NCBI GenBank assembly: GCA_016721625.1
Contig: JADKHR010000001.1
Span: 2,611,807 to 2,675,806 of the forward strand
Direction: 5' to 3'
Source of the DNA: Elusimicrobiota bacterium
GTDB taxonomy: Bacteria; Elusimicrobiota; Elusimicrobia; FEN-1173
DNA length: 64,000 bases
The notes under the pieces are model-generated. The model made no database searches, was not told where the DNA came from, and saw only the letters and a program-made list of their open reading frames with translations. Shown piece by piece: positions 28,953 to 57,318 of the stretch. The stretch's first letter is position 1. Each line of letters starts with the position of its first letter. The position numbers and the translations under genes are program-made.

Positions 28953-28991
28953 GGGAGGTTCCTCCCTCACCCTCCCCTTGGGAAGGGGAGG
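28953..28991. repeat. two tandem GC-rich hairpins (GGGAGG-TT-CCTCCC and CCTCCCCTT-GGG-AAGGGGAGG) in the convergent uvrB / HD-GYP intergenic; member of the CCCCTCCTT…AAGGAGGGG palindrome family
   Basis: perfect 6-bp and 9-bp stems read directly from the sequence; followed by attcaaaaaaatc; likely bidirectional terminator. Confidence 0.5.
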
Positions 28992-29033
28992 GGATTCAAA
29001 AAAATCAGGCGAAACCGGATTGTTGGGAGGGGG

Positions 29034-30263
29034 TCAGGACGGTATGGAAACCGTCTGAGGGCCGGGCGCGGGTGGGGTTTCCACGGGGTTGTCAGCGAAG
29101 CGTTCCATGACTTCGACTATTTTGGGGAAGATGTTTCGGAAGGCCTCAACGAGTTGGGGATCGAAATGCTTTCCGGCCCCTTCGTCGATGATTTTGGTCG
29201 TGTCGTCCAAAGAAAAAGCCGGTTTGTAACAGCGGCGGGACGTGAGGGCGTCAAAGACGTCGGCCAGGGCCACGATGCGCGCCTCCAACGGGATCGCTTC
29301 ACCCGAAATTCCCAAAGGATAGCCGGTTCCGTCCCACTTTTCGTGGTGGCCACGGGCGACGCGTTCCGACATCCGGAGAAGTTCATTTTCGGAGTTGGCC
29401 AGGATATCGCCGCCGAAGAGAGGGTGCCGGCGCATGTCCACCCATTCTTCTTCAGTCAGTCGTCCGGGCTTTTTTAGAATAGCGTCGGGGACCCCCAGCT
29501 TCCCGATGTCGTGCATGGGGCTGGCCAGGGCCAGGCGGGCGCACCAATCTTCCGGCATCCCCCGTTCTTCGGCGATCAGCGCGGCGTAGCGGCTGACACG
29601 TTCCAGGTGATTGCGGGTGTCGTGGTCTTTGAATTCGGCCGCCGCAGCCAAACGAAAAATCGTGTCTTTGTAGGCGGCCTGAAGTTCATCATAAAGCTGG
29701 GCGTTCTCCACGGCCGCGGCCGCTTGTTCGGCGAAGAGGACCAGCATTTTCTCATCGTCCGGGAGAAACGATCCCCCCGTCTTGTTCAACACCTGCAGGG
29801 CGCCCAGGACATCCCCTTGGGTTTTAATAAGGGGGGCGGTCAGCAAGGTTTGGGTGCGAAACCCGGTCGTTCGGTCGACGTCGGGGTTGAATCGGTCATC
29901 GGCGTAGGCGTCGGTGATGTTGATCACCCGGCGATGGGAGATGGTTTCCCCCACGATCCCGCGGTGGGCGGGGACGCGGATCGTCCGTTCTCCGGTGGCG
30001 ACCCTCGACCAAAGCTCGTTATTTTTTTTATCCAATAGGAAAACCGTGCACCGTTCCGCTTGAAGGATTTCCCGCGCGGCCTCCACCACCAAACTCAGGA
30101 GAGATTCCAGGTCTTTCCGGAGCGACATGCGGCGCGTGTAGTCGAGCAGGAGGTTCAGCCGACGGCGCCACTCGCTCAATTCCTCCATTTCCACTTTCGC
30201 GTCGTTCCGCTCCTCCGGCAAGGGGTCCGGCGGGAACGGCCGAGGGGCGGGGGCGGGGTGCAT
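29034..30263 (-). CDS. GAF sensor domain - HD-GYP domain c-di-GMP phosphodiesterase
   Basis: 409-aa ORF with GAF-like N-terminal half and HD-GYP half (…HDIGKLGVPDAILKKPGRLTEEEW…HHEKWDGTGYPLG…). Confidence 0.85.
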   Translation of the reverse strand: MHPAPAPRPFPPDPLPEERNDAKVEMEELSEWRRRLNLLLDYTRRMSLRKDLESLLSLVVEAAREILQAERCTVFLLDKKNNELWSRVATGERTIRVPAHRGIVGETISHRRVINITDAYADDRFNPDVDRTTGFRTQTLLTAPLIKTQGDVLGALQVLNKTGGSFLPDDEKMLVLFAEQAAAAVENAQLYDELQAAYKDTIFRLAAAAEFKDHDTRNHLERVSRYAALIAEERGMPEDWCARLALASPMHDIGKLGVPDAILKKPGRLTEEEWVDMRRHPLFGGDILANSENELLRMSERVARGHHEKWDGTGYPLGISGEAIPLEARIVALADVFDALTSRRCYKPAFSLDDTTKIIDEGAGKHFDPQLVEAFRNIFPKIVEVMERFADNPVETPPAPGPQTVSIPS

Positions 30264-30331
30264 GGCTCTAAGCCTACCAGAGGTTTCTGCAAATTTCCAG
30301 GGGGGGCCTACGACCCCATGGCGCGGGGCCT

Positions 30332-30360
30332 TTGACAGGCTCGGCGTGCAGAGCTAGAAT
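30332..30360 (+). promoter_or_regulatory. sigma70-type promoter TTGACA-17 bp-TAGAAT for nadC-birA
   Basis: ttgaca 30332-30337, 17-nt spacer, tagaat 30355-30360, 7 nt before the nadC ATG region (30367). Confidence 0.5.
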
Positions 30361-30366
30361 GGTCCT

Positions 30367-31251
30367 ATGAATTTCCGACGAGAAGCGCGGCGGGCCCTGG
30401 CCGAAGACCGAGCCCGGCGGGACGTCACCTCAAAAGGGTTCGTTCCCCCCGACGCCCGGGGCCGGGCCCGGGTGGTGGTGAAGGAGGCGGGGGTCCTCGC
30501 GGGGGGGCCCGTGGCCCTCGCTGTTTTTCGTGAGATGCACCCGACCGTTCGCGCCCGGTCCTTGGCGCCGGACGGGAGCGAGGTCTCGGTCGGCCAAGCG
30601 GTGCTGGAGGCTAGCGGCCCGCTCCGCGCGCTTCTCTCGGCGGAACGCTCCGCCCTCAATTTCTTGACGCACCTGTCCGGCGTCGCGACCTTGACCCGTC
30701 GTTTCGTCCAAGCGGCCGGGCCCCAAGGGCCGGCGATTCTCGAAACGCGGAAGACCTTGCCCGGCCTGCGGGATCTGGAAAAATACGCGGTGCGAATGGG
30801 GGGCGGCCAAAACCATCGCCGCGACCTTTCGGACATGGTTCTGATCAAAGAAAACCACCTCGAATTTTTCAAAGGCCCTTCCGGCCGCGCGGACCTCGTT
30901 CGCCGGGTTCGCCGGGCGAGGGGTTCCGGCGGCGCGGGTAAAAATCGGTCCCGTCGTCTGGTGGAAATGGAATGTCGGAACCGGGACGAAGTCCGGTGGG
31001 CTTTAGAGGCGGGCGCCGATCTTTTGCTCCTGGACAACATTCCCCTCCGGGACCTTCCGGCTTTTGTTCGTTGGGTGAGAGCCGAAGCCGCCCGTCATCC
31101 CGGCGCGCCCCCTCTTCTGGAAGTTTCCGGAGGCGTGACGCTGGCGGCCATTCCACGTTTGGCCCGGACGGGGGTGGACCGTGTTTCCGTGGGTCGGCTC
31201 ACCCATTCCGCTCCCGCCCTGGACATGAGCTTGGACGTGGAGGTTCAATGA
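30367..31251 (+). CDS. nadC: nicotinate-nucleotide diphosphorylase (carboxylating), quinolinate phosphoribosyltransferase
   Basis: 294-aa ORF with QPRTase C-terminal TIM-barrel motifs (…VLIKENH…, …LLLDNIP…, VSVGRLTHSAPALDMSLDV). Confidence 0.9.
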   Translation: MNFRREARRALAEDRARRDVTSKGFVPPDARGRARVVVKEAGVLAGGPVALAVFREMHPTVRARSLAPDGSEVSVGQAVLEASGPLRALLSAERSALNFLTHLSGVATLTRRFVQAAGPQGPAILETRKTLPGLRDLEKYAVRMGGGQNHRRDLSDMVLIKENHLEFFKGPSGRADLVRRVRRARGSGGAGKNRSRRLVEMECRNRDEVRWALEAGADLLLLDNIPLRDLPAFVRWVRAEAARHPGAPPLLEVSGGVTLAAIPRLARTGVDRVSVGRLTHSAPALDMSLDVEVQ

Positions 31252-32231
31252 GAACCGATTCCCTTCTTGCGCGCCTGCGGGCGGCCGACGGACCGCTTTC
31301 CGGGAGCGCCCTGGCCGACTCGCTCGGAGTGACGCGGGCCGCCGTCCATAAACGGATCGAAAAGCTTCGGGTTTCGGGACACCGTATTTCGGGGACCCAC
31401 CGGGTGGGCTACCGGTGGTCCGGGTCCACGGGTCGCCTGGACGCCTCCGTGTTGCAGGGGCCCCTGGCGCGAGACGTGATTCATCGCCGAGTCCTCGCTT
31501 CCACTCAGGACACGGCCAAGGCCGGCGCCGTCCGCGGCGCGGCCGAAGGGACCCTCGTCATCGCCGACCGGCAAACCGCCGGTCGGGGCCGGATGGGGCG
31601 CCGCTGGTCTTCACCGGCGGGGGGTCTCTGGTTTTCGCTCGTTCTTCGCCCTGCGGTTCGCCCGGACCGCGTTCCGCCTCTCCCTTTGGTGGCCGCCTTG
31701 TCGTGGGTGGAGGTCTTGCGGGCGCGGGGCGTACCCGCTGGCGTCAAGTGGCCCAACGACGTTTGGGCCGACGGAAAAAAAATAGCCGGATTCTTGACCG
31801 AAATGTCCGCCGAGACCGACCGCGTGCAGTGGGTGGTCCTCGGCGCGGGGGTGAATGTCAACAACCGGCCTCCCTCTTCTCTTCCCGGAGGCCTGCCGGT
31901 TCCCGCGGGGGCGGTCGCCCAGTGGACGGGGCCGGTGGTCCTTGAAGAACTGTTGGGAGATTGGTTGTCCCGCTTTTCCCGGTCCTACTCCCGGTTCGTC
32001 CGTGCGGGATTCTCTCCATTTCGGCCGGCGTTCGAACGATGGTCGGTGCTCCAGGGCGAGCGGGTGTTCTTTGAGGGGCCTTCGGGCCGGTGCGAGGGCC
32101 GCGTGATTGGGATCGACCGGGAAGGCCGGTTGCGACTGACCTCGGCGCGGGGGGAAACGACCTGTGGGGCGGGCGAGGTTTCCTTGATTCGCCCCGAACA
32201 GAGGCATGGCCGACCGAGGTCTTTCCCATGA
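31248..32231 (+). CDS. birA: biotin--[acetyl-CoA-carboxylase] ligase / BirA-type bifunctional repressor (N-terminal HTH present)
   Basis: ATG 31248 overlapping nadC stop; HTH (LSGSALADSLGVTRAAVHKRIEKLR), ligase motif GRGRMGRRWSSPAGGLWFS, C-terminal SH3-like domain. Confidence 0.85.
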   Translation: MRTDSLLARLRAADGPLSGSALADSLGVTRAAVHKRIEKLRVSGHRISGTHRVGYRWSGSTGRLDASVLQGPLARDVIHRRVLASTQDTAKAGAVRGAAEGTLVIADRQTAGRGRMGRRWSSPAGGLWFSLVLRPAVRPDRVPPLPLVAALSWVEVLRARGVPAGVKWPNDVWADGKKIAGFLTEMSAETDRVQWVVLGAGVNVNNRPPSSLPGGLPVPAGAVAQWTGPVVLEELLGDWLSRFSRSYSRFVRAGFSPFRPAFERWSVLQGERVFFEGPSGRCEGRVIGIDREGRLRLTSARGETTCGAGEVSLIRPEQRHGRPRSFP

Positions 32232-33766
32232 GTTCTTCCGTTCCGCTCCGCCTTCTGATCGCCGACCAAGATCCGGCTTTTGTGAAACTCTTCGCCCGGC
32301 GCATGGCGGAACTGACGGCCTGGACGGTCACCGTTGAATCCTGTGGGGCTGGAGCCGAACTTTTGCAACGCATTTACGCCGAACCCTTCGATCTGGTGTT
32401 TATGGACCTGGGGCTGACCGACATCGGCGGTTTGGATTTGTTGGCCCGGCTCGCTCGGACCTCCTTGCCCCTGCCGGTGGTGGCCCTGTCCTCGGAAAAC
32501 GAGGCCCGTCCTGCGGTGGAGGCGATGAAGCGGGGCGTTTTGGACCATGTGATGAAGGAGGACTTCGCCACCATGGACCTCGGGGGTTTTCTGGGGCGGC
32601 TCACCGAGACGTTTCGACTGAAACGGGAGAACGCCGAACTCCATCAAATCGGCCAGATGAAAAACGATTTCCTCGCCACCATCTCCCATGAGCTTCGCAC
32701 GCCGCTCACTTCCATCCTGGGACTGAGCGAATTGCTTATGGCCGGACGGATGGGGCCGGTGGCGGACAAACAGGCTGATGGCCTGCGGAAAGTGATCGAA
32801 CAATCTCAGAACCTTGCGCGCCTGATCAATCAACTCTTGGACGTGCAAGACACGATGTTGGAGCGGGCGCAGGGGGATTTCCGGCCTGTGTCTCTCACGG
32901 AAATCGTTGATCGCCACGTCACCTCTCTCCGTCCGTTGTTCGAGAAAAAGGGGATCCAGCTGGCGCTCTTCCTTCCCGGCGAACCGTTTTTTGTCCATGG
33001 GCACGGGGAATCTCTGGGGAAAGTCATGGAGCAACTTCTCTTGAACGCCCTGAAATTCACGCCGTCCGGAGGAGGTGTGACGGTTTCCCTTCAGGGCATG
33101 CCTCCCCAAGGGGCGCTCCTCTCCGTCCAGGACACCGGCCAAGGAATTCCGAAAGAGGCCTTGGGGTTCGTGTTCCAAAAATTTTTTCATGCCGACCCCA
33201 GCCTCACCCGGACCACCGGGGGTTTGGGTCTCGGGTTGGCCTATTGCCAGCATGTCGTGGAAAGCCACGGCGGTCGGATCTGGGTGGAATCGGCGGGTTC
33301 CGGGCAGGGGACGTGCGTTCATATCTCGTTGGCGTGTCTGGCCAGGAAAGGTTTTCCCCCTCCGGTGCCCGCGCGGGATCATCAATTGGTTCTGTGGGTC
33401 GACGACAACCCCAACATGCTCGAATTGATGGAGGTGGGGTTCGCTTCCCTGCCGGAAACGGTCCACCTGGTGACGCGTCAAAGCGGCCAGGCGGCCCTTG
33501 AAGAAGCCCGCGCCCGGCCCCCGGACCTGATCGTCCTGGACCTCATGATGCCGGACATGAACGGCTTGGAAGTGTTGAGCCACCTCAAGGCCGACCCCGC
33601 GACCGCCCGGATTCCCGTTTTCGTCGTCACGGGTTACCGCGAGGCGGCTCAGGAGGCCGTGGCCCAGGGCGCGGTCGACTCTTTCCTGAAACCCTTCCGC
33701 ATCCCGGAAATATTGGAAAAAATCCGAGAAATCCTTCGCCTCCCGTCGTCCGCCCAGAAGTTGTAG
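32228..33766 (+). CDS. hybrid sensor histidine kinase with N- and C-terminal receiver domains (REC-HisKA-HATPase-REC)
   Basis: ATG 32228; REC (LLIADQDPAFV…DLVFMDLGLTDIGG), H-box SHELRTPLTSI, G-boxes (GGLGLGLAY), second REC (…LIVLDLMMPDMNGLE…). Confidence 0.8.
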   Translation: MSSSVPLRLLIADQDPAFVKLFARRMAELTAWTVTVESCGAGAELLQRIYAEPFDLVFMDLGLTDIGGLDLLARLARTSLPLPVVALSSENEARPAVEAMKRGVLDHVMKEDFATMDLGGFLGRLTETFRLKRENAELHQIGQMKNDFLATISHELRTPLTSILGLSELLMAGRMGPVADKQADGLRKVIEQSQNLARLINQLLDVQDTMLERAQGDFRPVSLTEIVDRHVTSLRPLFEKKGIQLALFLPGEPFFVHGHGESLGKVMEQLLLNALKFTPSGGGVTVSLQGMPPQGALLSVQDTGQGIPKEALGFVFQKFFHADPSLTRTTGGLGLGLAYCQHVVESHGGRIWVESAGSGQGTCVHISLACLARKGFPPPVPARDHQLVLWVDDNPNMLELMEVGFASLPETVHLVTRQSGQAALEEARARPPDLIVLDLMMPDMNGLEVLSHLKADPATARIPVFVVTGYREAAQEAVAQGAVDSFLKPFRIPEILEKIREILRLPSSAQKL

Positions 33767-33805
33767 AATCGCTCTCATTCGATTCTCCTGCGAGAGGGGT
33801 GCCCT

Positions 33806-34696
33806 TTGCCGAAACGCCAGCGTTCCACCGAACCCGTCCGCCTCGCCGTCATCGGCGGGAGCGGGCTTTACGATGTCCCCGGAATTGAAGACGTCCAAGA
33901 AATCCGGGTCAAAACGCCCTTTGGGGACCCCTCCGACGTTTTCGTGGTGGGCCGGCTGGCCGGGGTTCGTTGCGCCTTCCTTCCCCGCCACGGCCGCGGC
34001 CACCGGCACCTCCCGACCGAGGTCCCCTCGCGCGCCAATATTTACGCTTTGAAATCCCTAGGCGTCGAACGCGTCATCGGCGTCGGCGCCGTGGGGAGCC
34101 TGAAGGAGGAACTGGCGCCGCGGCATTTCGTCGTTCCCGATCAGGTGTTTGACCGCACCAAGCTTCGGTCGACGACGTTTTTCGGCGACGGGATCGTGGC
34201 TCACATCGGAGTGGACCAGCCCTTCTGTTCGTCTCTCAGCGGGGTCCTGGCTCAGGTGGCCGGGGAACTCGGGGTCACCGTTCATGGGGGCGGCCAGGAC
34301 GTCTGCATCGAAGGCCCCAGTTTTTCGACCAAAGCGGAATCCCAGGTGAACCGCGCCCACGGTTTTTCGGTGGTCGGCATGACGCTGGTCCCGGAATACA
34401 AACTGGCTCGGGAAGCCGAGATGTGTTACGCCACCGTTTCTCTCGTGACCGATTACGACGTCTGGAAAGAGGGGGAGGAAGTGTCCGTCGAAAAGGTCGT
34501 GGCGACCATGCAGGCCAACGTGGCCCACGTGAAGGACCTCCTCCGGGTTCTCTTGCCGCGATTGACGGGCCCCCGGACGTGCGCCTGCGGCACGGCTCTC
34601 CGGAACGCCGTCTTCACCGACCTGAAGGCGATGAAGCCTTCCACGCGGCGAAAACTCGATCTTCTTTTGCGCGGGCGCGTTCCACCGATCCCCTAG
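33806..34696 (+). CDS. mtnP: S-methyl-5'-thioadenosine phosphorylase (PNP/MTAP family)
   Basis: VIGGSGLYDV…, …LPRHGRGH…, MTLVPE motif typical of MTAP. Confidence 0.85.
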   Translation: MPKRQRSTEPVRLAVIGGSGLYDVPGIEDVQEIRVKTPFGDPSDVFVVGRLAGVRCAFLPRHGRGHRHLPTEVPSRANIYALKSLGVERVIGVGAVGSLKEELAPRHFVVPDQVFDRTKLRSTTFFGDGIVAHIGVDQPFCSSLSGVLAQVAGELGVTVHGGGQDVCIEGPSFSTKAESQVNRAHGFSVVGMTLVPEYKLAREAEMCYATVSLVTDYDVWKEGEEVSVEKVVATMQANVAHVKDLLRVLLPRLTGPRTCACGTALRNAVFTDLKAMKPSTRRKLDLLLRGRVPPIP

Positions 34697-34705
34697 TCCC
34701 CGGCC

Positions 34706-35527: not shown

Positions 35528-36081
35528 CCTCCCGCTGGGTGGAGCGGCCGGTTCGCCGGCGGCGGGTGTACCGCGGCCGGGCGGTGGACTTTTGGGCAGA
35601 CACGGTTCGTTTGCCCTCCGGCGGCACCTCCGTGCGGGAATATCTGGGCCATCCGGGAGCCGTGGCCGTGGTGGCCATCGCGGGGGGAACCGCCAGGGAC
35701 CCCGACATCCTGTTCGTTCGTCAGTACCGCTACCCGGTCAAAGAGGTCACCTTGGAACTCCCCGCCGGGAAACTGGACCCCGGGGAATCCCCGAGGGTTT
35801 GCGTTCGACGGGAGTTGGAGGAGGAAACCGGTTTTCGGGCCCGATCGGTGAGTCGAATGCTGTCCTACTGGCCCACGCCCGCCTTCGCCGATGAGGTGAT
35901 CCATTTGTTTCTGGCTAGGGGCCTCTCCCCGGGCCGTTTTTCCCCGGACGAGGACGAATTCATTGAACCGGTCCGACTGCCATTGAGCCGCGCCCTGGAG
36001 CTGGCCCGCCGGGGCCGCCTCAAAGATTCGAAAACGCTTATCGGCCTCCTGGCTTTCGACCGGGTTCTCCGAAAGCGGTGA
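35524..36081 (+). CDS. NUDIX hydrolase, ADP-ribose pyrophosphatase-like
   Basis: Nudix box GKLDPGESPRVCVRRELEEETG from ATG 35524; listed ORF 35167..36081 is an upstream extension. Confidence 0.8.
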   Translation: MTSRWVERPVRRRRVYRGRAVDFWADTVRLPSGGTSVREYLGHPGAVAVVAIAGGTARDPDILFVRQYRYPVKEVTLELPAGKLDPGESPRVCVRRELEEETGFRARSVSRMLSYWPTPAFADEVIHLFLARGLSPGRFSPDEDEFIEPVRLPLSRALELARRGRLKDSKTLIGLLAFDRVLRKR

Positions 36082-49170: not shown

Positions 49171-52100
49171 CCGCTGACCGGCCTTCCCGGGACGTCGCCC
49201 GGAAACAATTGGATGTGAACGTCGTCGTGGAGGCGGGAGCCGGAACGGGGAAAACCACCCTCTTGACGGATCGCCTCCTCTTTCTCCTTTTGGCGGGAGG
49301 GCCGGAACGGGAGGGCCTTTCCGTCACTCGGATCGTCGCGCTGACCTTTACGGAGAAAGCGGCGGGGGAAATCAAACTGCGGCTGGCCGATCGGTTGAAC
49401 GATCTCCTGCGACGGTTGGAGGGACGTCCCTTGGCGGCGAAACGCGGGGAGCGGACGGAGGTTTGGCTGGCGGAGGCCCGGGCCGAATTCGGGGCGACGG
49501 AAGAACGCCTGCGCCTCATGGCGGGGGACGCGTTGCGGGACCTGGACCGCGCCCCCATCGGCACCATCCACAGTTTTTGCAAAACCCTGCTCCAACTGTT
49601 TCCCTTAGAAGCCGGGTTGAACCCGAACTTTCAAGTGGATAGAGGGGACGCCTTCGAGGAACTTTTCGAGCGGGAATGGGGACGTTGGTTGGAGGGAGAA
49701 CTCATTCCCGGGGGGCCCGCGGTGGAGCTGTGGCGGGAGGTTTTGCCCCGGGTGGGGTTGGGGGATGTGGCGACCCTGGCTCGCGCTCTGGCCCGTTCTT
49801 CGCCCGCTCTATTGGATCGAACCTTCTCCGCCGATCGTCTGGCGGAATGGCGGATGGCCCTCGAACGGGTGCCGGTGGGAAAACCCAAACCCCGACGGGG
49901 GAAAATGCTGGAGTCCATCCAGCGGATTGCCGAACGCCTCCGCGCGGTGGAACAGGTGGCGCGGGACCCCTGGGGTCCGTGGCCCGAGGCGGACGACTGG
50001 AAAGAAGCTCCTAAAACGTGGCCCGGCGAGTGGGAAGAGTTAGAAGGGGAAACGGTGTACGAGGACGCCTGCGCCGTGGCGAAGGCGGTTTCTCCGGTTG
50101 GCGAAGCGGCGCTGGCCCGCGTGCGGAAGCTTTTGTCTCCTTTTCTGGACCACTGCCGGGCCCGTTACCGTGCTGCCGGGTGGATGGGGTTTGACGATCT
50201 TTTGAGCGGTGCGCGGAACCTGTTGGCCCAGCACCCTGAAGTTCGGCGGGAATTGAAATCCCGCTACGGGGCGATTTTGGTGGATGAGTTTCAGGACACG
50301 GACCCGCTCCAGGGGGAACTGTTGCTCTTCTTGGCCGAGCGGGCGGAATCCGAGGCGGCCGCCTGGAAGGAGGTGTCGCTCGCGCCTGGAAAACTATTTA
50401 TCGTCGGGGACCTAAAACAATCCATTTATCGGTTTCGCGGCGCCGACATTCGAGCTTACGAAGCGTTTGTCTCTCTTGTTATCGCCCAGGGCGGGCGCAA
50501 GTGCGATCTCCAAACCAGTTTTCGGACCCACGAAGGAATCGTGGGTCCGGTCAACCGACTTTTCACCGACTTGATGCGGGAGGCCCCCGGTTTGCAACCC
50601 GCCTATTTGCCTTTGCTCCCTCGGCCGGGAGGAGGGCCGGACAACGGAGGCGTTGAACTGGCGATCGTTCCGGCGGGTTCAAAAGGGGAGGACTCTTCTT
50701 CCTTGGGTCAGGAGGCCGAGGCTCGCTGGATCGCCCGATGGATCGTGGACCGATGCGGACCGGAGGGGTCCGGGCGTCCCTGGCGGTTGGGCGATGTGGC
50801 CCTCCTCTTTCGGTCCACGTCGGCTCTAACGGTCTATATGGAGGCCCTGAAGGCCGCCCGGATTCCCTATTTGGTGGAAAGCGACCGGGCTTTTTACGGC
50901 ACGCCGGAGGTGATGGATTTTCTTAACCTTCTTCGTGTCGTGCAGGATCCCGCCGACCGGGTGTCTTTGGTGGGACTGTTGCGGTCCCCCATGGTTCTTT
51001 TGGAAGACCGCCACCTCCTGGCCCTGGCCGAAGCGGGTCGACTGGACGATCGGCTGCTTCCCCCCGAGGGGCTTCCCCCGGAGGTCTCTCGAACGATCGC
51101 TGATTTCTTCGGTGTGTTGGGACAGCTCCGCGCGGCGGCGCAACGAGAAAGTTTAGGCGAGGTGTGCGCCCGTCTCCTGCGGGAAACCCCGCTGTTGGCC
51201 GCTTCCGCCGCCGCCTATTACGGCGAACAAAGCGTGTCCAACCTGTTCAAACTGGCCCGATTGGCGGCGGAGGCGGGCGCGGCCCGGGGAGAAACCCTGG
51301 ACGGGTTCGCCCGCCGACTCATGGCGGCCGTGGCGGAGGGCCGGGAAGAGGGGGAAAGCTCCTTGGGGGAGGAAAAAGTGGAGGCGGTCCGGCTTTTGAC
51401 GGTCCACAAGGCCAAAGGGTTGGAATACAAGGTGGTGTTTTTGCCCAACCTTTCCGCGAAGGTCCAGGGCGGCGCCCGTCATCCTCCGGCCCTTCGTCAG
51501 GATTGGGCCGAGGGGCGGGTGGGTCATCGTCTCGTCCAAAAGAAATGGGCGGACCTTGAAATGGTTTTCCTGGAAAGCGACGAACGCCGCCGGGAGGCGG
51601 AGGAGTCCATTCGGCTCTTTTACGTGGCCGCCACCCGGGCCCGGGAACAGGTGATCCTCGTCGGAAATGAAAAGATCGCCCTCGGGTCTTTCATGGGCAT
51701 GTTGAGCGGGGCGGCCCGACGGGGGGTAGGGGCCTGGGAATGGGCCGATGGCCTTCGCCTGCCGGTCACCGTTGTCTCGCGGGAGACCGGGGGCGAACCC
51801 CGTTGGCCGAAGGGGGAATCCCCAGGCAAAAACCGTCTGACGCCCTCGCTCGTCCGTTCTTGGGAAAAACGGAAGGTCCTCGGGGCGGAGATCCAAGGGC
51901 GGCCCCTGTTCCGCAGTCCATCGTCAAAAACCCAGGAGTCGGAGAAGATCGCGGGGGGAGAGCCCAGCCTCCCCTCAGCGGAAGCCGCCCTTCTGGGTCG
52001 TTTGTGCCACGCGGTCCTGGAAACCTGGGAGTGGGGAAGCCCCACCGACGTGTCCCCCGCGGTGGGCCGAACCGCCGCTCTATTAGCGCCGGAGCATCCG

Positions 52101-52484
52101 GCCGCCGATTGGGCCCGATGGACGGAGGAGGCGACGGGGATTCTTTCCGCTTTCCTTCAATCGCCGGTTGGGCGGTCCTTCGCCCAGGAAAAAATATTAG
52201 CCCGGGAGGCGCCGTTCCTTTTCGGGGAGAAGGAAGGCGTGGTTCGCGGCGTCATCGATCTTCTATACCGTCGGGGCGCGGCGCTCTGGGTGGCCGACTA
52301 CAAAACCGACCGGGTGCGCCCCGGTGAAGAAAAAGAACACGCGCGCCGTTATGCCGAACAGGGAAGAGATTATCGCGCGGCCGTTCAAAAAGCCTTGGGG
52401 GAGCCCTGCGGGTTCGAGGTGATCTTTTTACGGACCGGGGAGAGTGTCGTTCTGGAGGAACCGCCTCTTTCTCTGGAGGCTTAA
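49167..52484 (+). CDS. addA: AddA/RecB-type UvrD-family helicase with C-terminal PD-(D/E)XK nuclease
   Basis: ATG 49167 overlapping addB stop; helicase motif I VVEAGAGTGKTT, motif II ILVDEFQDTD, later UvrD motifs, C-terminal nuclease GVIDLLYRRGAALWVADYKTD. Confidence 0.85.
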   Translation: MTADRPSRDVARKQLDVNVVVEAGAGTGKTTLLTDRLLFLLLAGGPEREGLSVTRIVALTFTEKAAGEIKLRLADRLNDLLRRLEGRPLAAKRGERTEVWLAEARAEFGATEERLRLMAGDALRDLDRAPIGTIHSFCKTLLQLFPLEAGLNPNFQVDRGDAFEELFEREWGRWLEGELIPGGPAVELWREVLPRVGLGDVATLARALARSSPALLDRTFSADRLAEWRMALERVPVGKPKPRRGKMLESIQRIAERLRAVEQVARDPWGPWPEADDWKEAPKTWPGEWEELEGETVYEDACAVAKAVSPVGEAALARVRKLLSPFLDHCRARYRAAGWMGFDDLLSGARNLLAQHPEVRRELKSRYGAILVDEFQDTDPLQGELLLFLAERAESEAAAWKEVSLAPGKLFIVGDLKQSIYRFRGADIRAYEAFVSLVIAQGGRKCDLQTSFRTHEGIVGPVNRLFTDLMREAPGLQPAYLPLLPRPGGGPDNGGVELAIVPAGSKGEDSSSLGQEAEARWIARWIVDRCGPEGSGRPWRLGDVALLFRSTSALTVYMEALKAARIPYLVESDRAFYGTPEVMDFLNLLRVVQDPADRVSLVGLLRSPMVLLEDRHLLALAEAGRLDDRLLPPEGLPPEVSRTIADFFGVLGQLRAAAQRESLGEVCARLLRETPLLAASAAAYYGEQSVSNLFKLARLAAEAGAARGETLDGFARRLMAAVAEGREEGESSLGEEKVEAVRLLTVHKAKGLEYKVVFLPNLSAKVQGGARHPPALRQDWAEGRVGHRLVQKKWADLEMVFLESDERRREAEESIRLFYVAATRAREQVILVGNEKIALGSFMGMLSGAARRGVGAWEWADGLRLPVTVVSRETGGEPRWPKGESPGKNRLTPSLVRSWEKRKVLGAEIQGRPLFRSPSSKTQESEKIAGGEPSLPSAEAALLGRLCHAVLETWEWGSPTDVSPAVGRTAALLAPEHPAADWARWTEEATGILSAFLQSPVGRSFAQEKILAREAPFLFGEKEGVVRGVIDLLYRRGAALWVADYKTDRVRPGEEKEHARRYAEQGRDYRAAVQKALGEPCGFEVIFLRTGESVVLEEPPLSLEA

Positions 52485-52590
52485 GAATCTAAGGTTGAGG
52501 AAGGGGTGTCTCTTTATCGTTCCGAAGCGATTTTTGTAGTTGCCCGATTTATCGGGCGGTCTTCCGTTAGAAGAACTCGCCCCGGAAAAC

Positions 52591-52614
52591 GGTGGCCCCT
52601 TAAATGGGGCCACC
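52591..52614. terminator. perfect 9-bp-stem hairpin GGTGGCCCC-ttaaat-GGGGCCACC in the addA/glnK convergent intergenic
   Basis: read directly; on the - strand it is followed by GTTTTCCGGGG; plausible terminator for the glnK-amt transcript. Confidence 0.3.
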
Positions 52615-52679
52615 ACAAAAGCCATGCTCCGTCGGACGCAACGGGCGGCTAAAGAGATACAGGAAGGGTTTACCTCCCC

Positions 52680-52708
52680 TTAATCCCCTCCTTGGGAAGG
52701 AGGGGATT
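52680..52708. repeat. REP-like palindrome TAATCCCCTCCTT-GGG-AAGGAGGGGATTA (13-bp stem)
   Basis: perfect inverted repeat read from the sequence; same core as copies at 57170-57192 and 57298-57318. Confidence 0.5.
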
Positions 52709-52742
52709 AAAAGAGACCACGACAATCTCATGGTTTTTCTCC

Positions 52743-52761
52743 CTCCCCTTGGCAAGGGGAG
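52743..52761. repeat. REP-like palindrome variant CTCCCCTT-GGC-AAGGGGAG
   Basis: perfect 8-bp stem; same variant as 28971-28991. Confidence 0.4.
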
Positions 52762-52842
52762 CCCGTCGCAGAGCTCCGGACACTTGGGGCGCCAGAGCCG
52801 CTGATGCGGGGCCGGGGAGGGGTGGTCTTTGACGGTGTCTTT

Positions 52843-53184
52843 TTATCCGATCGCCAGGCGGCCCGTTTCTCCCGTTCGAATCCGAATGACTTGGCCCAAA
52901 TCGAGAACAAAGATTTTCCCGTCGCCGACGTTCCCTGTTCGCCCGGCCGATTGAATGGCCTCCACCGTCGGCTGAACATATTCCTCGTTCACCGCGACTT
53001 CCACCTTCACTTTCTTAAGCAGGCTCCCGCCCTCTTTGTGGCTCCGGTAGACTTCCGAAATGCCTTTTTGACGGCCCCGACCCATGACGTTCGAGACAGT
53101 GACCAGGTGGATGGCCTTCTGTTCCAAGGCGTCCAGCACGTCGTCCAGCCGGTCCGGTTGAATGATGGCAACGATGTATTTCAT
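52843..53184 (-). CDS. glnK: nitrogen regulatory protein P-II (GlnB/GlnK family), paired with the upstream amt
   Basis: MKYIVAIIQPDRLDDVLDALEQ… with T-loop GRGRQKG…Y and C-terminal …GDGKIFVLDLGQVIRIRTGE; start codon at 53184 (listed ORF has a spurious N-terminal extension). Confidence 0.85.
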   Translation of the reverse strand: MKYIVAIIQPDRLDDVLDALEQKAIHLVTVSNVMGRGRQKGISEVYRSHKEGGSLLKKVKVEVAVNEEYVQPTVEAIQSAGRTGNVGDGKIFVLDLGQVIRIRTGETGRLAIG

Positions 53185-53206
53185 AGGGTTTTCTCCTGAA
53201 AAAAGA

Positions 53207-54532
53207 TTAGTCGATGATCGTGTAGGCCGCTTCGCGGTGTTGGGTGAGATCAAGGCCGATGCGTTCGTCCTGATCGGAAACCCGGAGCCCCACCAACACA
53301 TCCACCAGTTTAAGCAAGACGATGCTGAGAACGAAGGAGTAGATTCCCGTCACCAGTACCGCCTTGGTTTGGATCCAAACCAGCCCGGGGTTCCCGTGCA
53401 AAAGCCCATCGGCCCCCGCGGGATTGACGGTTTTCGTGGCCCAAATCCCCGTGGCGATGGCGCCCCAAATGCCGCCCACCCCGTGAACGCCGAAGGCGTC
53501 CAGGGAATCGTCATAACCCAATTTCACTTTCACGTACATCACGGAAACGAAACAAATGAGGGCGACTGTGATCCCGATGGCCATGGCCCCGAGCGGCGTG
53601 ACGTACCCCGCCGCCGGTGTGATGGCCACGAGCCCCGCCACGGCCCCCGTGATGGTGCCCAGCATGGTGGCGTGCCGGTTCACGAGGACATCCAACCCGG
53701 CCCACACAAGCCCGGCGGTGGCCGCCGCGATGTGGGTGGAGACGAAGGCCGTGGTGGCGAGACCCCCGGCGCCCAGGGCGCTCCCGCCGTTAAACCCAAA
53801 CCAACCGAACCACAACATCCCCGCGCCCAAGACCGCGAAGGGAAGGTTGTGGGGCGGAGACAGGCGGGTGGGGAACCCCCGCCGTTTCCCTAAAACCAGA
53901 GCCGCGGCCAGCGCCGCCACGCCGGCGTTGACGTGGACCACGGCGCCGCCCGCGAAATCCAGGGCCCCGGACAGTTTCAAAAACCCTCCCGTGCCCCACA
54001 CCCAATGGGCCACGGGGTCGTAGACGATGGTGCTCCAAAGAAGGGAAAAGAGAACGTAGGCGGAAAATTTCATCCGTTCGGCGAAGGCGCCCAAAATAAG
54101 GCCCGGCGTGATGATGGCGAACATGCATTGGTAGATCATGAAGGCCTGGTGCGGAATGGTGGGCGCGTAGTCGGTATTGGGCGTCAGTCCCACGCCGTTC
54201 AACCCGAGCCATTGAAGGTTTCCAACGAGGCCCCCAATGGTGGGCCCGAAAGAGAGGCTGTACCCCATCACCACCCATTGCACCGTGATCAGTCCCATGA
54301 CCGCGAAACACTGCATGAGAACGGACAACATGTTCTTTCGTCGCACAAGCCCGCCGTAAAAAAAGGCGAGGGCCGGCGTCATCATCAAAACCAACGCGGC
54401 GGACACCAGCACCCAGGCGGTATCTCCGGAACTCACGGCGGAAGGGGTGATCTCTCCCGCGGTTTCCGCCCATAGGGCGGGCGCCAGGAGCGAGGCAAAA
54501 ATACCAAGGACCAAATGTCGAATTCGTTTCAT
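53207..54532 (-). CDS. amt: ammonium transporter (Amt/MEP family) with signal peptide
   Basis: Start MKRIRHLVLGIFASLLAPALWA at 54532 preceded by AAGGAGG; Amt signatures (…MMTPALAFFYGGL…, twin-His region, …DFAGGAVVH…). Confidence 0.9.
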   Translation of the reverse strand: MKRIRHLVLGIFASLLAPALWAETAGEITPSAVSSGDTAWVLVSAALVLMMTPALAFFYGGLVRRKNMLSVLMQCFAVMGLITVQWVVMGYSLSFGPTIGGLVGNLQWLGLNGVGLTPNTDYAPTIPHQAFMIYQCMFAIITPGLILGAFAERMKFSAYVLFSLLWSTIVYDPVAHWVWGTGGFLKLSGALDFAGGAVVHVNAGVAALAAALVLGKRRGFPTRLSPPHNLPFAVLGAGMLWFGWFGFNGGSALGAGGLATTAFVSTHIAAATAGLVWAGLDVLVNRHATMLGTITGAVAGLVAITPAAGYVTPLGAMAIGITVALICFVSVMYVKVKLGYDDSLDAFGVHGVGGIWGAIATGIWATKTVNPAGADGLLHGNPGLVWIQTKAVLVTGIYSFVLSIVLLKLVDVLVGLRVSDQDERIGLDLTQHREAAYTIID

Positions 54533-54577
54533 GTCAGCAGTGACCTCCTTAAATGGTTCAGCGGGGGGCGGAATAAA

Positions 54578-54620
54578 AAACGCCTCGCGTCGCGGCAAGT
54601 GCCGCGCGGCGAGACGTCCA
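54578..54620 (-). promoter_or_regulatory. terminator-like hairpin plus U-tract in the amt leader, ~40 nt upstream of the start codon (putative attenuator)
   Basis: - strand RNA: CGCCGCGCGGCACUUGCCGCGACGCGAGGCG followed by UUUUUUAUU then the SD AAGGAGG. Confidence 0.4.
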
Positions 54621-54668
54621 TGTCTCCGACCCCGTCCGCTCTCAGGTCCCATTGGACCGGAACGTCGT

Positions 54669-54692
54669 TGTCTGAATCTGTCGGCACAGCGC
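54669..54692. promoter_or_regulatory. perfect 24-bp palindrome TGTCGGCACAGC-GCTGTGCCGACA immediately downstream of the amt -10 box (putative operator)
   Basis: read directly; core ACAGCGCTGT also present in the second amt leader (60849-60864). Confidence 0.4.
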
Positions 54693-54696
54693 TGTG

Positions 54697-54726
54697 CCGA
54701 CAAAGGATTCTACACTGCCCTGATGG
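54697..54726 (-). promoter_or_regulatory. sigma70-type promoter for amt-glnK (TTGACA-18 bp-TAGAAT on the - strand)
   Basis: reverse complement of tgtcaa (54721-54726) and attcta (54697-54702) with an 18-nt spacer. Confidence 0.5.
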
Positions 54727-54744
54727 TCGCTGTCAATTTATTCA

Positions 54745-54872
54745 GTAACTGAATTTTCCGAGTTCGACCTTTCCGCGGAAAACCTAAAAGCTCCCGGCGG
54801 TGTAGGCCAGGACCATGGGCATGCCGAGGAAAACGATCAGGTGCATGATCGCGAGGTTTTTTTCGGAGGGGT
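54745..54872 (-). pseudogene. diverged remnant of a cytochrome bd subunit II (cydB) 3' end, imperfect direct repeat of 56100-56224
   Basis: - strand translation …SEKNLAIMHLIVFLGMPMVLAYTAGSF*VFRGKVELGKFSY* versus intact cydB C-terminus …SEKTLAIMRLIAFLGMPMVLAYTAVIYWVFRGKVELGKFSY*; 36-nt block cggcggtgtaggccaggaccatgggcatgccgagga identical in both copies; flanking differences are mostly synonymous third-position changes toward A/T. Confidence 0.6.
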
Positions 54873-54873
54873 C

Positions 54874-56055
54874 TTACGAGGCGATGATTTCTCCATCCCA
54901 TAGTCGGCGTAGGAAATCGGCCCAGGGAAGGACGTGCACAAGGCCCATTTGACGCGGGCGGGGGTCGTGCGTCACCAGGATCAGCTTTTTGACCGTGTAT
55001 TCTTCCGCGAAGGCCATGAGACCCTTGGCGTGGCGTGGTTGGGCCATGTCCGTGGATTTAACTTCCACCGCGACCTCGTGATCTCCGAGAATGAAGTCAA
55101 CTTCCAACTGGGAGGCCGTGCGCCAATAGGAGAGGGGATACCGTATCCCCGAGTAATGGCTGTGCGCCAATAATTCTTGAAAATGGAAGTGCTCAAAAGC
55201 TTTTCCATAAGATTCGCTTTTCGGAACGATGGGTCCCCTCTTGAGAAGAAAATTAGCGAGTCCCACATCAAAGTAATAAAATTTCGGCGATCGGATCACC
55301 CGCCGTTTCGGCCTTTTTTGAAAAACGGGGAGAAAGCGACCCACCAACGTGTCCTCCAATATCTCAAAGTATTGCCGCACGGTGGGACCGCTGACGCCGC
55401 ACTCTTGGGCAATATTCAGTTCATTGACGATTTCCCCATTGCTGAAAGCCGCCGATTCCAGGAACCGATGGAAAGCGGGAACATTGCGCACCAGCGCCTC
55501 TTGGGCGATCTCTTCTCGGAGATAGTCGACAACATACGACTGCATCATTTCCGTGTAATTATTGGAAAGGTAGTGCCGGGGAATCAACCCACGGTTCAAA
55601 GCCCAGTCCAGGCGAAAGCGGGGGATTTCCCGGGAGACCAAGGGAAACATTTCATAGCGAAGGGCTCGCCCTCCCAGCAGGTTCCCGCCCCCTCTTTTAA
55701 GTTTTCGAGCGCTGGATCCACACAGGATGAACTGGAATTTTGAGTGGGTGATCAGCCATTGCACCTCATCGAGAAGAGCCGGCACCTTTTGAACTTCATC
55801 GATAATGATGGGACGACGGGCGAGGGTCGGGTTTTCCAACAGTTCTTCCCGCAGAAGAGCAGGTCTTTTTTGAAGACGGTCATAGTCATCCGACAAAAGC
55901 AAATTATAAAACCGGGCCGTCGGGAACGATTTCTCCAGCCAGGTGCTTTTGCCCACCTGCCGGGGTCCCCAAAAAAAGCACGTCTCGCGCTTTAATCGGG
56001 GAAATGTTTGCATGCGATTAAACATGATAAAAGAAAGTATACTTTGTTTTATCAT
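54874..56055 (-). CDS. AAA+ ATPase of the DUF4143 family (COG1373-type ATP-binding protein); low-GC island
   Basis: Walker A GPRQVGKST, Walker B IIIDEVQ, C-terminal DUF4143-like region; codon usage clearly AT-richer than the contig; the listed ORF start 56142 is an artefactual extension antisense to the cydB 3' end; start taken at the ATG at 56055 (alternative 56025). Confidence 0.8.
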   Translation of the reverse strand: MIKQSILSFIMFNRMQTFPRLKRETCFFWGPRQVGKSTWLEKSFPTARFYNLLLSDDYDRLQKRPALLREELLENPTLARRPIIIDEVQKVPALLDEVQWLITHSKFQFILCGSSARKLKRGGGNLLGGRALRYEMFPLVSREIPRFRLDWALNRGLIPRHYLSNNYTEMMQSYVVDYLREEIAQEALVRNVPAFHRFLESAAFSNGEIVNELNIAQECGVSGPTVRQYFEILEDTLVGRFLPVFQKRPKRRVIRSPKFYYFDVGLANFLLKRGPIVPKSESYGKAFEHFHFQELLAHSHYSGIRYPLSYWRTASQLEVDFILGDHEVAVEVKSTDMAQPRHAKGLMAFAEEYTVKKLILVTHDPRPRQMGLVHVLPWADFLRRLWDGEIIAS

Positions 56056-56056
56056 G
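56023..56056. repeat. AT-rich 34-bp near-perfect palindrome CATGATAAAAgAAAGTATACTTTgTTTTATCATG overlapping the ATPase start codons
   Basis: read directly; single central mismatch pair; contains both candidate ATG starts of the ATPase gene on the - strand. Confidence 0.4.
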
Positions 56057-56096
56057 ATGAAGAAGGGCCTTTTTCCGCCCGGCGCGTCGCGCCGGA

Positions 56097-57113
56097 TCAA
56101 TAGCTGAACTTGCCCAGCTCCACTTTCCCTCGGAAAACCCAATAGATGACGGCGGTGTAGGCCAGGACCATGGGCATGCCGAGGAACGCGATCAGGCGCA
56201 TGATCGCAAGGGTTTTTTCGGAGGAGGCGGCGTTGTAGATGGTGAGGTTGGCGGCGGGGTCGAGGCTGGAGACGGCCAGGTTGGGGTAAAGGGCCAGGCC
56301 GAAGAGGAAGACGAAAGCGGCAATGGACGCTCCGCTGGACAGAAACGCTTCAAAGGGCCTGCCGCGAAAAACAGCCCGGGGAATGTTGGCGACCGCCAAC
56401 ACGTTCAACACGACCACGGCCCACGCCCAAGGGTGGTGGGTGAAATTTTCCACGGCGCGGGGAACGGAAACCAGGGTGAAGATCGTCGTCAATAAATAGG
56501 TGATTAAAAACCAGCCGAACAGCCGCCAAATCCATCCCTGCAAACGCGCCTGGATCGGCCCCTCTGTTTTAAGGTAGAGATAAATGGCGCCGTGCATGGC
56601 CGCCGTGACGATGGCAAAAAGGCCGACCAGAACAGGATAGGGGGTCAGCAAGCCAAAAAATCCAATTCTCAGTTCTCCGTCCAACCCGATCGGAAGGCCG
56701 CGGAAACAGTTTCCCACGGCGGCGCCGAAAAGGAGGACCGCGGTGAGGCTTGATCCGAAAAAAGTCCAGTCCCAAAAAGATCGCCAGATTTTAGAGGGGC
56801 GCTTGCTCCGGAACTCCATGGACACCGCCCGGAGGATCAGGCAAAGGACCAACAGCATAAAGGCCGCGTAAAGGCCGGAAAACATCGTCGCGTAGGCCCG
56901 GGGAAAGGCCGCGAAAAGGGCGCCGCCGAACGTGACCAGCCAGACTTCATTGCCGTCCCAGAGGGGGCCGATGGAGTTCATGAAAATCCGACGTTCCTCA
57001 TCCGTCCGAGCCAGGGGATGCAGGATCCCCACGCCCAAATCGAACCCATCCAAAATCCCGTAACCCGCCATTAAAACGCCCAACAAGACAAACCAGAAAA
57101 TGTGTAAGTCCAT
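56097..57113 (-). CDS. cydB: cytochrome bd ubiquinol oxidase subunit II
   Basis: Start MDLHIFWFVLLGVLMAGYGILDGFDLGVG (cydB signature) at 57113; 8-9 TM helices; the listed ORF carries a short spurious N-terminal extension. Confidence 0.9.
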   Translation of the reverse strand: MDLHIFWFVLLGVLMAGYGILDGFDLGVGILHPLARTDEERRIFMNSIGPLWDGNEVWLVTFGGALFAAFPRAYATMFSGLYAAFMLLVLCLILRAVSMEFRSKRPSKIWRSFWDWTFFGSSLTAVLLFGAAVGNCFRGLPIGLDGELRIGFFGLLTPYPVLVGLFAIVTAAMHGAIYLYLKTEGPIQARLQGWIWRLFGWFLITYLLTTIFTLVSVPRAVENFTHHPWAWAVVVLNVLAVANIPRAVFRGRPFEAFLSSGASIAAFVFLFGLALYPNLAVSSLDPAANLTIYNAASSEKTLAIMRLIAFLGMPMVLAYTAVIYWVFRGKVELGKFSY

Positions 57114-57169
57114 TGCGCCTCCAAAAAAAGTGGAATTTAACAGGGTGTCGTTGCTAAGACCTCCCCCAG

Positions 57170-57318
57170 CCCCCTCCTTGCGAAGGAGGGGGAACACGGC
57201 TCCTCCATAAATGGGATTTCCCTTCCCAGGGAAGGCCCGTCGTCCGGATCCTCATGATCCGGGTTGCAAAAAGACCCACGCGGGCTTGTCTTTTTTTCCC
57301 CTCCTTCCCAAGGAGGGG
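57170..57318. repeat. cluster of GC-rich hairpins in the cydA-cydB spacer including two REP-like palindromes CCCCCTCCTT-GCG-AAGGAGGGGG and CCCCTCCTT-CCC-AAGGAGGGG
   Basis: 57170-57192 (10-bp stem), 57221-57235 (CCTTCC-cag-GGAAGG), 57244-57262 (CCGGATC-ctcat-GATCCGG), 57298-57318 (9-bp stem); all read directly. Confidence 0.5.

Follow-up and report, generated by a model that had tools for sequence, protein, structure and literature searches.

A 64,000-nt stretch of the Elusimicrobiota contig JADKHR010000001.1 (hereafter the window; GC content of the genome ~62%) carries five perfect GC-rich hairpins in intergenic DNA (Table 1). Their neighbours are uvrB and a gene for a GAF/HD-GYP protein, which converge; genes for an AddA-like UvrD/PD-(D/E)XK helicase-nuclease and the P-II protein GlnK, also convergent; and cydA and cydB, which encode cytochrome bd subunits I and II in one minus-strand operon. 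The original prediction had named these copies and these neighbouring genes, and an exhaustive search for perfect palindromes recovered all five. The pattern CCYCCYTT-N3-AAGGRGG, with at most one mismatch, occurs at three sites (six strand matches) against 0.22 expected, a number that none of 100 dinucleotide shuffles reached. Two of the five copies have a permuted arm, AAGGGGAG(G), instead of AAGGAGGGG. Because 52664-52714 and 57289-57339 form a 51-nt inverted repeat with 90% identity, the repeated unit must exceed the hairpin in length. At gathering score, Rfam recognizes only a tRNA; up to E = 1, it has no match in 52400-57450 and only chance-level matches at 28850-29100. As set out below, the hairpins are probably class II purine-motif intrastrand-triplex repeats (three intact, two decayed) and orphan derivatives of units that encode a small DUF559 endonuclease.

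A third arm beside the hairpins

In three of the window copies, a third segment that mirrors the purine (R) arm begins 2-3 nt past it. The segment repeats the purine arm backwards without complementing it: G stays G, while A is replaced by T or A. A tail of this kind follows the code of an antiparallel (reverse-Hoogsteen, RH) purine-motif triple helix. Perfect motifs made of a pyrimidine (Y) arm, a purine arm and a reverse-Hoogsteen arm (Y-R-RH) with 9-10 triads occur three times in the window and never in 60 dinucleotide shuffles. The same three copies have the strand order that the ITxF criteria of Holder 2015 describe for class II purine-motif intrastrand triplex motifs (PIT/TM), namely Y arm, loop, R arm, loop and reverse-Hoogsteen arm, together with a mirror arm, a stem of 6-15 nt, at most one mismatch and loops of 1-6 nt. 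Loop 1 is 3 (or 5) nt long and loop 2 is 2-3 nt long. An alternative drawing of the hairpin of the 57159-57192 copy has a 10-bp stem and a CGC loop. The copy at 28961-28992 agrees with these criteria only over six contiguous triads (28961-28966), having kept 6 of 10, and 52743-52761 does not agree with them. When a module is folded as DNA in ViennaRNA, only the hairpin is returned, at -10 to -11 kcal/mol.

Table 1. Hairpins, modules and spacer features of the window (positions within the 64,000-nt stretch; Y, pyrimidine; R, purine)
Feature	Position	Strand	Description
Hairpin	28970-28992		Stem 10, loop GGG; perfect
Hairpin	52680-52710		Stem 14, loop GGG; perfect
Hairpin	52743-52761		Stem 8, loop GGC; perfect
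Hairpin	57170-57192		Stem 10, loop GCG; perfect
Hairpin	57297-57319		Stem 10, loop CCC; perfect
Intact class II module	57297-57332	+	Y arm TCCCCTCCTT (57297-57306), loop CCC, R arm AAGGAGGGGA (57310-57319), linker TTA, third strand AGGGGAGGTT (57323-57332); 10/10 triads
Intact class II module	57159-57192	-	CCCCCTCCT tcgca AGGAGGGGG ct GGGGGAGGT; 9 triads
Intact class II module	52671-52706	-	TCCCCTCCTT ccc AAGGAGGGGA tta AGGGGAGGTA; 10 triads; convergent addA-like/glnK spacer
Decayed module	28961-28992	-	Perfect 10-bp hairpin CCCTCCCCTT-CCC-AAGGGGAGGG (28970-28992), TGA, then GGGAGG (28961-28966)
Probable remnant of a second module	28937-28960	+	CCCTTCC gt AAGGAGG g GGAGGTT; read from the sequence
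Hairpin-only copy	52743-52761		CTCCCCTT-GGC-AAGGGGAG; no third strand on either side
cydA-cydB spacer	57114-57413	-	300 nt; lineage-specific insertion carrying the doublet
Doublet interior	57193-57296		7-bp hairpin (57244-57262), short Y/R hairpin (~57221-57235), A-run/hairpin/T-run (~57265-57296)

The modules are often arranged in pairs. In the cydA-cydB spacer, 57159-57192(-) and 57297-57332(+) form an inverted doublet with the tails pointing outwards and 104 nt between them; the second of these modules is identical in two species-level relatives (L132 and L133). Next to uvrB, the segment at 28937-28960 adjoins 28961-28992 tail to tail (GGGAGG-TT-CCTCCC), giving a tails-in pair with nothing in between. 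This segment, which has no statistical support of its own, is probably the leftover of a second module.

To judge by their sequence anatomy, the modules belong to a repeat class first described in E. coli, here with AAGGAGGGG-type arms. This class is the subject of work by Bachellier in the 1990s, Hoyne, Edwards, Viari & Maher 2000 and Hoyne & Maher 2002; BoxC and the ‘potential intrastrand triplex’ (PIT) elements of Hoyne and Maher are reviewed by Holder et al. 2015 (PMC4666352), who give the TMECO consensus as CCCTCNCCC-N3-6-GGGNGAGGG-N3-GGGNGAGGG. TMECO elements of E. coli are of the class II purine motif, are always intergenic and often form inverted pairs; their copy number varies greatly between close relatives, and local sequence instability is associated with them (PMC4666352). 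As single strands they form a triplex in vitro by circular dichroism (CD) and NMR (PMC4666352). The window modules share with BoxC/PIT/TMECO the succession of Y arm, loop, R arm, a 2-4-nt loop and a mirror strand (G.GC, T/A.AT), a length of ~34-37 nt, a strictly or mostly intergenic location, frequent inverted pairs, sharp copy-number differences between close relatives and indels beside copies. Unlike TMECO (GGGAGAGGG/GGGTGAGGG), the window has AAGGAGGGG/GGGG(A/T)GGT(T) arms, so that the strict TMECO/BoxC consensus is not matched by its CCCCTCCTT/AAGGAGGGG/GGGGAGGT set; TMECO-type arms do occur at other loci outside the window. The host is also different, being Elusimicrobia-like, and the arm type is found in many phyla, whereas TMECO has been reported in Proteobacteria. 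The window's arm type was not found in Holder et al. 2015 or in supplements to it, and literature searches with module sequence strings returned only unrelated matches.

The modules also have points in common with H-DNA, namely mirror symmetry and reverse-Hoogsteen purine-motif triads. Unlike H-DNA, they have all three arms on one strand, a built-in Watson-Crick hairpin and a T-rich third strand. With all three arms on one strand, the fold would need single-stranded DNA rather than the supercoiled duplex of H-DNA.

Covariation and distribution across bacteria

The arm type of the window is widespread. A scan for CCCCTCCTT-N3-AAGGAGGGG, with one genome per species, gave at least 120 matches, and the taxa among the matches listed include Chlamydiota, Bacteroidota, Patescibacteria, Nitrospirota, Acidobacteriota, Gammaproteobacteria, Dehalococcoidia and others. 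The window 22-mer AAGGAGGGGATTAAGGGGAGGT occurs exactly in at least 120 metagenome contigs with 32-66% GC; the flanks of these contigs are unrelated, yet the Y arm lies upstream in every case. Flanking sequences also contain an element that had not been part of the query, GGGG(T/A)GGT(T), 2-5 nt on or past a small inserted GC hairpin. For seed hairpins from other genomes, GGG[TA]GG[TG] lies within 45 nt on at least one side in 126 of 148 cases, compared with 1.25% of random 45-nt control windows.

Covariation between arm and tail was assessed in 913 kb of DNA on Y/R hairpins with arms unlike the query, and the control swapped arms and flanks. Of 158 hairpin sides, 48 had eight or more triads in a row, compared with 3.8 in the arm-swap control. 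More than ten arm types emerged, each paired with a matching tail: for example, AAGGGGAGG(G) goes with (G)GGTGGGGT(T/A), as in AAGGGGAGG with GGTGGGGTA, and further pairs are GGGAGAGGG with GGGTGAGGG, AAAGGGGGA with AGGGGGATT, AAAGAGGGG with GGGGAGATT and GAGGAGGGG with GGGGTGGTG. The tail base that faces A is T in 254 instances and A in 110. Only a purine motif formed by the G-rich strand admits T opposite A, which excludes both a pyrimidine-motif fold in the C-rich strand and a plain homopurine mirror repeat. All 132 perfect motifs are class II, with the tail at the 3′ side; no class I motif, which has the third strand at the 5′ end, was among them.

These data bear on the idea that the sequences form some other G-rich structure (a G-quadruplex, or an i-motif on the C strand), serve as a protein-binding site or arose by chance in GC-rich DNA. 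The purine arm and tail together do supply four G-tracts, and the genome is rich in G and C. Nonetheless, a quadruplex does not need T or A in the tail to mirror the A of the arm, as is seen across subfamilies, and the E. coli members give triplex rather than quadruplex spectra (PMC4666352). Chance is excluded by the shuffles, and the modules remain unchanged in genomes with 32-45% GC. We regard this explanation as the most remote of those considered.

The genomic setting of the modules was examined in loci selected by motif. There, 76% of 151 perfect modules fall outside crude open reading frames (ORFs), although these cover 86% of the DNA. The surrounding genes are co-directional in 73 cases, convergent in 22 and divergent in 5; divergent spacers are thus avoided. 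By crude ORF calls and local skew, the modules have no strand bias relative to transcription (G-rich strand sense in 36, antisense in 37) or to GC skew (locally G-rich strand in 73, C-rich strand in 78). The absence of a preferred orientation speaks against the three-part unit working as RNA and is consistent with an element that acts in DNA. Adjacent modules are inverted in 46 pairs and tandem in 5. A Thiomargarita metagenome-assembled genome (MAG) has a tandem array of several complete 41-nt modules, each with hairpin, tail and 8-nt spacer (L069, 7048-7324).

The original prediction had compared the palindromes to repetitive extragenic palindromes and bacterial interspersed mosaic elements (REP/BIME), in which plain palindromes are selected as RNA or DNA hairpins, are moved by a REP-associated tyrosine transposase (RAYT) and act as terminators or mRNA stabilizers. 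Part of this description has held up well. The family is dispersed, intergenic and constrained in structure; its copies sit at convergent gene ends and inside an operon; and, as in REP/BIME/REPIN systems, short palindromes have a conserved flank on one side and often form inverted doublets that look like REPINs. Moreover, the cyd doublet as RNA is predicted to pair into one long stable stem (z = -3.8). The constrained unit is a hairpin plus a mirror third strand, however, and a plain hairpin model leaves the conserved, covarying third strand unexplained. The flank is an 8-10-nt mirror tail in place of a GTAG-like 5′ tetranucleotide, and the same module sequence is shared by many phyla, whereas REPs are lineage-specific. 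Neither the proposed function nor the proposed mover is supported. The modules are not followed by a T-run; the ten largest ORF clusters near modules in 240 motif-selected loci include no transposase family, the window ORFs having been scanned in part only; and the gene that does recur beside modules encodes a Vsr-fold DUF559 endonuclease (see below). According to the account in PMC4666352 of Hoyne & Maher 2002, PIT elements have neither promoter nor terminator activity in E. coli. Taken together, we consider REP-type palindromes an improbable explanation, and the modules are best read as selfish repeats at the DNA level, and not as terminators or targets of a RAYT.

Candidate intrinsic terminators were also sought directly. 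A terminator and promoter scan of the cyd spacer (56900-57600) flagged none of the modules, and the hairpins are followed by A-runs or mixed sequence.

DUF559 endonuclease genes flanked by modules

Crude ORFs of the 240 motif-selected loci were clustered, and the ten largest recurring clusters were annotated. One recurring family, present in 19 of the 240 loci, encodes proteins of ~120-135 aa with a median identity of 46% and corresponds to Pfam DUF559. A profile search found DUF559 ORFs directly flanked by modules in 23 of the 240. These genes are bracketed by inverted modules with matched arms, and the downstream module usually covers the stop codon, which accounts for C-termini such as ...PSPLLVKEKG. 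Another family, the 23S rRNA intervening sequence protein (PF05635, a four-helix bundle), has ORFs in five of the loci (L044, L047, L164, L216 and L246); as none of them lies directly beside modules, it was set aside as a partner.

Loci chosen by motif are biased for the motif, and the test was therefore repeated on genes picked by protein similarity alone. Modules flank all 17 of these DUF559 genes (14 by the strict finder, 3 by eye). The first sample came from a tblastn search against plasmids and chromids that gave 33 records from at least 14 genera, of which 12 genes were taken in 1.5-kb stretches. These 18 kb contain 25 perfect modules, compared with none in shuffles; the strict finder placed a module within 200 nt of 9 of the 12 genes, and beside the other three, variants are visible whose loops are longer or whose arms are made up of just five Gs. 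Four 50-kb stretches contain 13 modules, 9 of them no more than 200 nt from a DUF559 gene, a zone that makes up 1.5% of the DNA (binomial P = 3e-14), and the four solo modules share their arms with modules at the gene. The second sample consisted of five loci from the profile search, 90 kb in total. Here, 13 of 15 modules adjoin a DUF559 gene (P = 1.5e-16), and all five genes are flanked on both sides. Across unrelated bacteria, YcjD-like DUF559 genes are thus statistically associated with class II modules, and further modules that stand alone but share these arms lie scattered near the module-flanked genes.

A common layout links these loci to the window. Tails-out doublets stand at the gene ends in L173, L270, L274 and L276, in the order [-][+] gene [-]([+]), and L276, from the second sample, has the window's own arm type. 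Read at the sequence level, the cyd doublet is the same tails-out arrangement minus the gene. E. coli K-12 itself offers a parallel: a degenerate BoxC overlaps the 3′ end of ycjD, annotated as DUF559 domain-containing, and is translated as ...SPSPLKERGG, and 168 nt after the ycjD stop lies the repeat that Holder lists as TMECO no. 9. E. coli ycjD fits the module-flanked pattern. No transposase or integrase has ever been found near TMECO (PMC4666352), and the BoxC/PIT/TMECO class was published without a mobility gene, in contrast to the DUF559 association found here. When the presence and absence of fabI-ycjD-sapF were compared, 38% of genomes broke homology near TMECO no. 9, a figure that is confounded by an inserted eef efflux locus. 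Between the ycjD stop and TMECO no. 9, a fragment of the ycjD 3′ end is duplicated (L254, 1800-1925; ETVLENI...LNR), which suggests a past tandem copy or the partial deletion of a second unit.

The DUF559 proteins have kept catalytic-type residues. Across an alignment of 15 module-linked proteins, which are 29-63% identical to its first sequence, the D, E-x-D-G and H residues typical of Vsr/PD-(D/E)XK enzymes are invariant. The sole solved relative, 3hrl, is annotated as an ‘endonuclease-like protein’. DUF559 has been placed in one structural group with Vsr and I-Bth0305I, a homing endonuclease of a group I intron (PMC3424549), and a Caulobacter DUF559 protein triggers an SOS response on loss of cytosine methylation (PMC12907096). 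In REP systems, the corresponding gene encodes an HUH tyrosine transposase, a different enzyme. The analogy to REP and RAYT is nevertheless a good one for the overall logic, in which one small nuclease-type gene is flanked by repeats that are also scattered without the gene.

Some DUF559 units separate genes that usually neighbour each other in an operon. One lies between pntAA and pntAB (L259, 574-969), and two lie between hsdS and hsdR of type I restriction systems on unrelated contigs (L274, 10001-10366; L275, 8049-8405); this is the same behaviour as that of the insertion between cydA and cydB in the window. In a low-GC metagenome contig (L210, 1542-2912), a DUF559 gene with modules lies inside a Sua5/YrdC (TsaC-like) frame that is unbroken in crude ORF calls. 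DUF559 separates the two parts in which the Sua5 domain is matched; a conserved gene may here have received an insertion in frame. On Pseudanabaena and Picosynechococcus plasmids (L263 and L264), DUF559 genes are flanked by several copies of minimal all-G modules of the form CCCCCC-agaatt-GGGGGG-cta-GGGGGG, with 5-6 triads, that would slip past most triplex finders.

A second explanation accepts the association but holds that the modules are a recognition or homing site for a free-standing DUF559 gene, or hot spots for it, and spread by other means such as replication slippage, gene conversion or uptake. Relationship to I-Bth0305I favours this idea, as do the DUF559 genes found between otherwise adjacent genes and the fact that gene-less modules are the majority. 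Like the Vsr-like EDxHD homing genes, DUF559 is a small selfish nuclease gene of related fold between or inside host genes; unlike I-Bth0305I, it comes with no intron or intein and with triplex-type inverted repeats that have no counterpart there, and the activity of YcjD-like proteins is predicted only. Inverted modules with matched arms on both sides of the gene, with the stop codon usually within the downstream module, are what a single unit of gene and repeats would predict. The present data separate this alternative poorly from the orphan-unit explanation, and we judge it unlikely, if still the most serious competitor.

Recent gain at cydA-cydB and the origin of the window copies

The history of the cydA-cydB spacer is visible in related genomes. 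Elusimicrobia MAGs encode proteins with 82-87% identity to CydB, and in these relatives only 2-3 nt separate the cydA stop from the cydB start (AAGGAG-TAG-tt-ATG); ~100 kb of their DNA contains no module. By contrast, the spacer measures 300-308 nt and contains the doublet in the window and in two contigs whose CydB is 99% identical. This Elusimicrobia-like lineage has therefore gained its modules recently, among other places by insertion between cydA and cydB. They are also conserved relative to the surrounding spacer: between the window and the 99%-CydB lineage, 0 of 70 module positions differ, compared with 39 of 238 in the rest of the cyd spacer (Fisher P = 2e-5). The 104-nt doublet interior and the other spacers have matches at orthologous loci only, and just the ~45-50-nt modules recur. 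As the interior is unrepeated, the repeated unit is the module rather than a larger miniature inverted-repeat transposable element (MITE). The modules resemble MITEs in that gene-less copies outnumber gene-carrying ones, in their terminal inverted repeats and in insertion at an operon junction; they differ in having no target-site duplication found, in that the 34-50-nt module itself is the repeated unit, and in lacking a DDE transposase. A MITE was accordingly considered for the inverted doublet and rejected, as no duplication is recognizable at cydA/cydB and the interior is unique to the orthologous locus.

A further explanation is that the hairpins regulate translation or ribosome loading as RNA through their Shine-Dalgarno (SD) and anti-SD content (AAGGAGG with CCTCCTT, and a free GGAGGT tail). 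The SD consensus and its complement are indeed within the arms, the tail stands just upstream of the start codon in some DUF559 units (L227 and L228), and one module lies 45 nt upstream of cydB. Yet cydB has its own fresh GGAGG ribosome-binding site at 57120-57124, just before the ATG, and many subfamilies have arms that are not SD-like, for example GGGAGAGGG and AAAGGGGGA. Modules occur in both orientations relative to genes and at convergent 3′ ends, and a mirror-symmetric tail would be unnecessary for such a role. We hold this to be very improbable, even more so than REP-type palindromes.

The other copies and their surroundings have changed in part. In L121 and L123, the ortholog of 52671-52706 has two changes, one in the loop and one from G to C in the R arm, and the 52743-52761 hairpin is kept with changes. 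Directly beside this tail-less hairpin, a 48-nt segment (52761-52809) is present in the window and in L122 and absent from the close relatives L121 and L123; indels beside repeat copies have likewise been reported at E. coli TMECO loci. The addA/glnK spacer also has a 9-bp hairpin at 52591-52614, GGTGGCCCC-TTAAAT-GGGGCCACC, which is kept with changes in L121.

Between cydB and amt, the ORF at 54874-56142(-) encodes an AAA_14/DUF4143 ATPase. The 3′ end of cydB is duplicated beyond this gene as a 128-nt direct repeat (54742-54869/56097-56224, 84% identical), and the ATPase gene looks like an insertion with target duplication. The AAA_14/DUF4143 family occupies the same place in L121 and L132 and is not there in the more distant L124-L129. 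Over the cydA start region, a perfect 16-bp palindrome (58845-58879, AGAAAGGGCGGGGGTC-AAG-GACCCCCGCCCTTTCT) is unrelated in sequence to the triplex modules and could be an upstream terminator or operator. uvrB is split between two reading frames, the N-terminal domains in the ORF at 26909-28138 and Helicase_C/UvrB/UVR in the ORF at 27808-28926 (overlap 27808-28138); either the gene is a frameshifted pseudogene or the sequence contains an error near 28090-28138.

These observations can be assembled into a working model of orphan DUF559-unit repeats. On one strand, the pyrimidine arm, triloop and purine arm would form a hairpin, and after 2-3 nt the third strand would fold back antiparallel into the hairpin major groove, giving G.GC, T.AT and A.AT triads. 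The fold would arise for short times when replication, repair or transcription exposes single-stranded DNA. A DUF559 nuclease would act on it and so spread or maintain the repeats. The window copies would then be gene-less derivatives of DUF559 units, standing to them as REPs do to a RAYT gene or MITEs to an insertion sequence (IS). Effects on neighbouring genes, such as a stable stem in the cydAB transcript or local indels, could be by-products.

A number of points weigh against this model. Two of the five copies (28961-28992 and 52743-52761) are without an intact third strand, and no target-site duplication or clean insertion boundary can be defined at cydA/cydB. A six-frame profile search of the 64-kb window and ~130 kb of relatives found no DUF559 gene, which makes the window copies orphans, and the window has no YcjD-like gene between inverted modules with matching arms. 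For this organism, a DUF559 partner is putative. As module-flanked genes supplied both DUF559 queries, the association holds for the small (~120-135 aa) YcjD-like subfamily and not necessarily for all DUF559. It is also compatible with modules as a nuclease target or homing site or as gene-regulatory parts, in place of ends like those of a transposon. Triplex folding of the window sequence is predicted from arm anatomy and by analogy to E. coli TMECO, for which the triplex was undetected in double-stranded DNA or in vivo by dimethyl sulphate (DMS) footprinting (PMC4666352). According to the same source, RNA does not form purine-motif triplexes.

For the window, hairpins that had seemed merely REP-like become a specific, structurally defined repeat class, and the 300-nt gap in the cydAB operon is explained as a recent insertion of triplex-class repeats. 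The window element adds a different arm type and host to a known class; new here is the link to DUF559, which should surprise specialists. Our literature search, which did not extend to most subscription journals, found no paper that links DUF559 to BoxC, PIT or triplex repeats. A practical consequence is that translated modules (e.g. PLL-KEG-GVV) contaminate gene calls and lengthen DUF559 ORFs.

Intrastrand-triplex repeats are abundant in bacteria and are tied to local genome instability, and they have so far had no known origin, enzyme or function. A reproducible link to a small endonuclease family with intact catalytic residues, which includes E. coli YcjD and 3hrl, offers a concrete and testable mechanism. 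The broader proposition, to which we give about even chances, is that BoxC/PIT repeats are the terminal repeats or cognate sites of pan-bacterial selfish units of ~0.5 kb that encode YcjD-like DUF559 proteins, and that the thousands of gene-less modules are their non-autonomous offspring. If true, DUF559, a widespread domain of unknown function, would gain a role. Bacteria would also have a system like that of REP and RAYT built on a different enzyme fold and a three-stranded DNA structure, and repeats that have gone unexplained for ~25 years would find their place in it.

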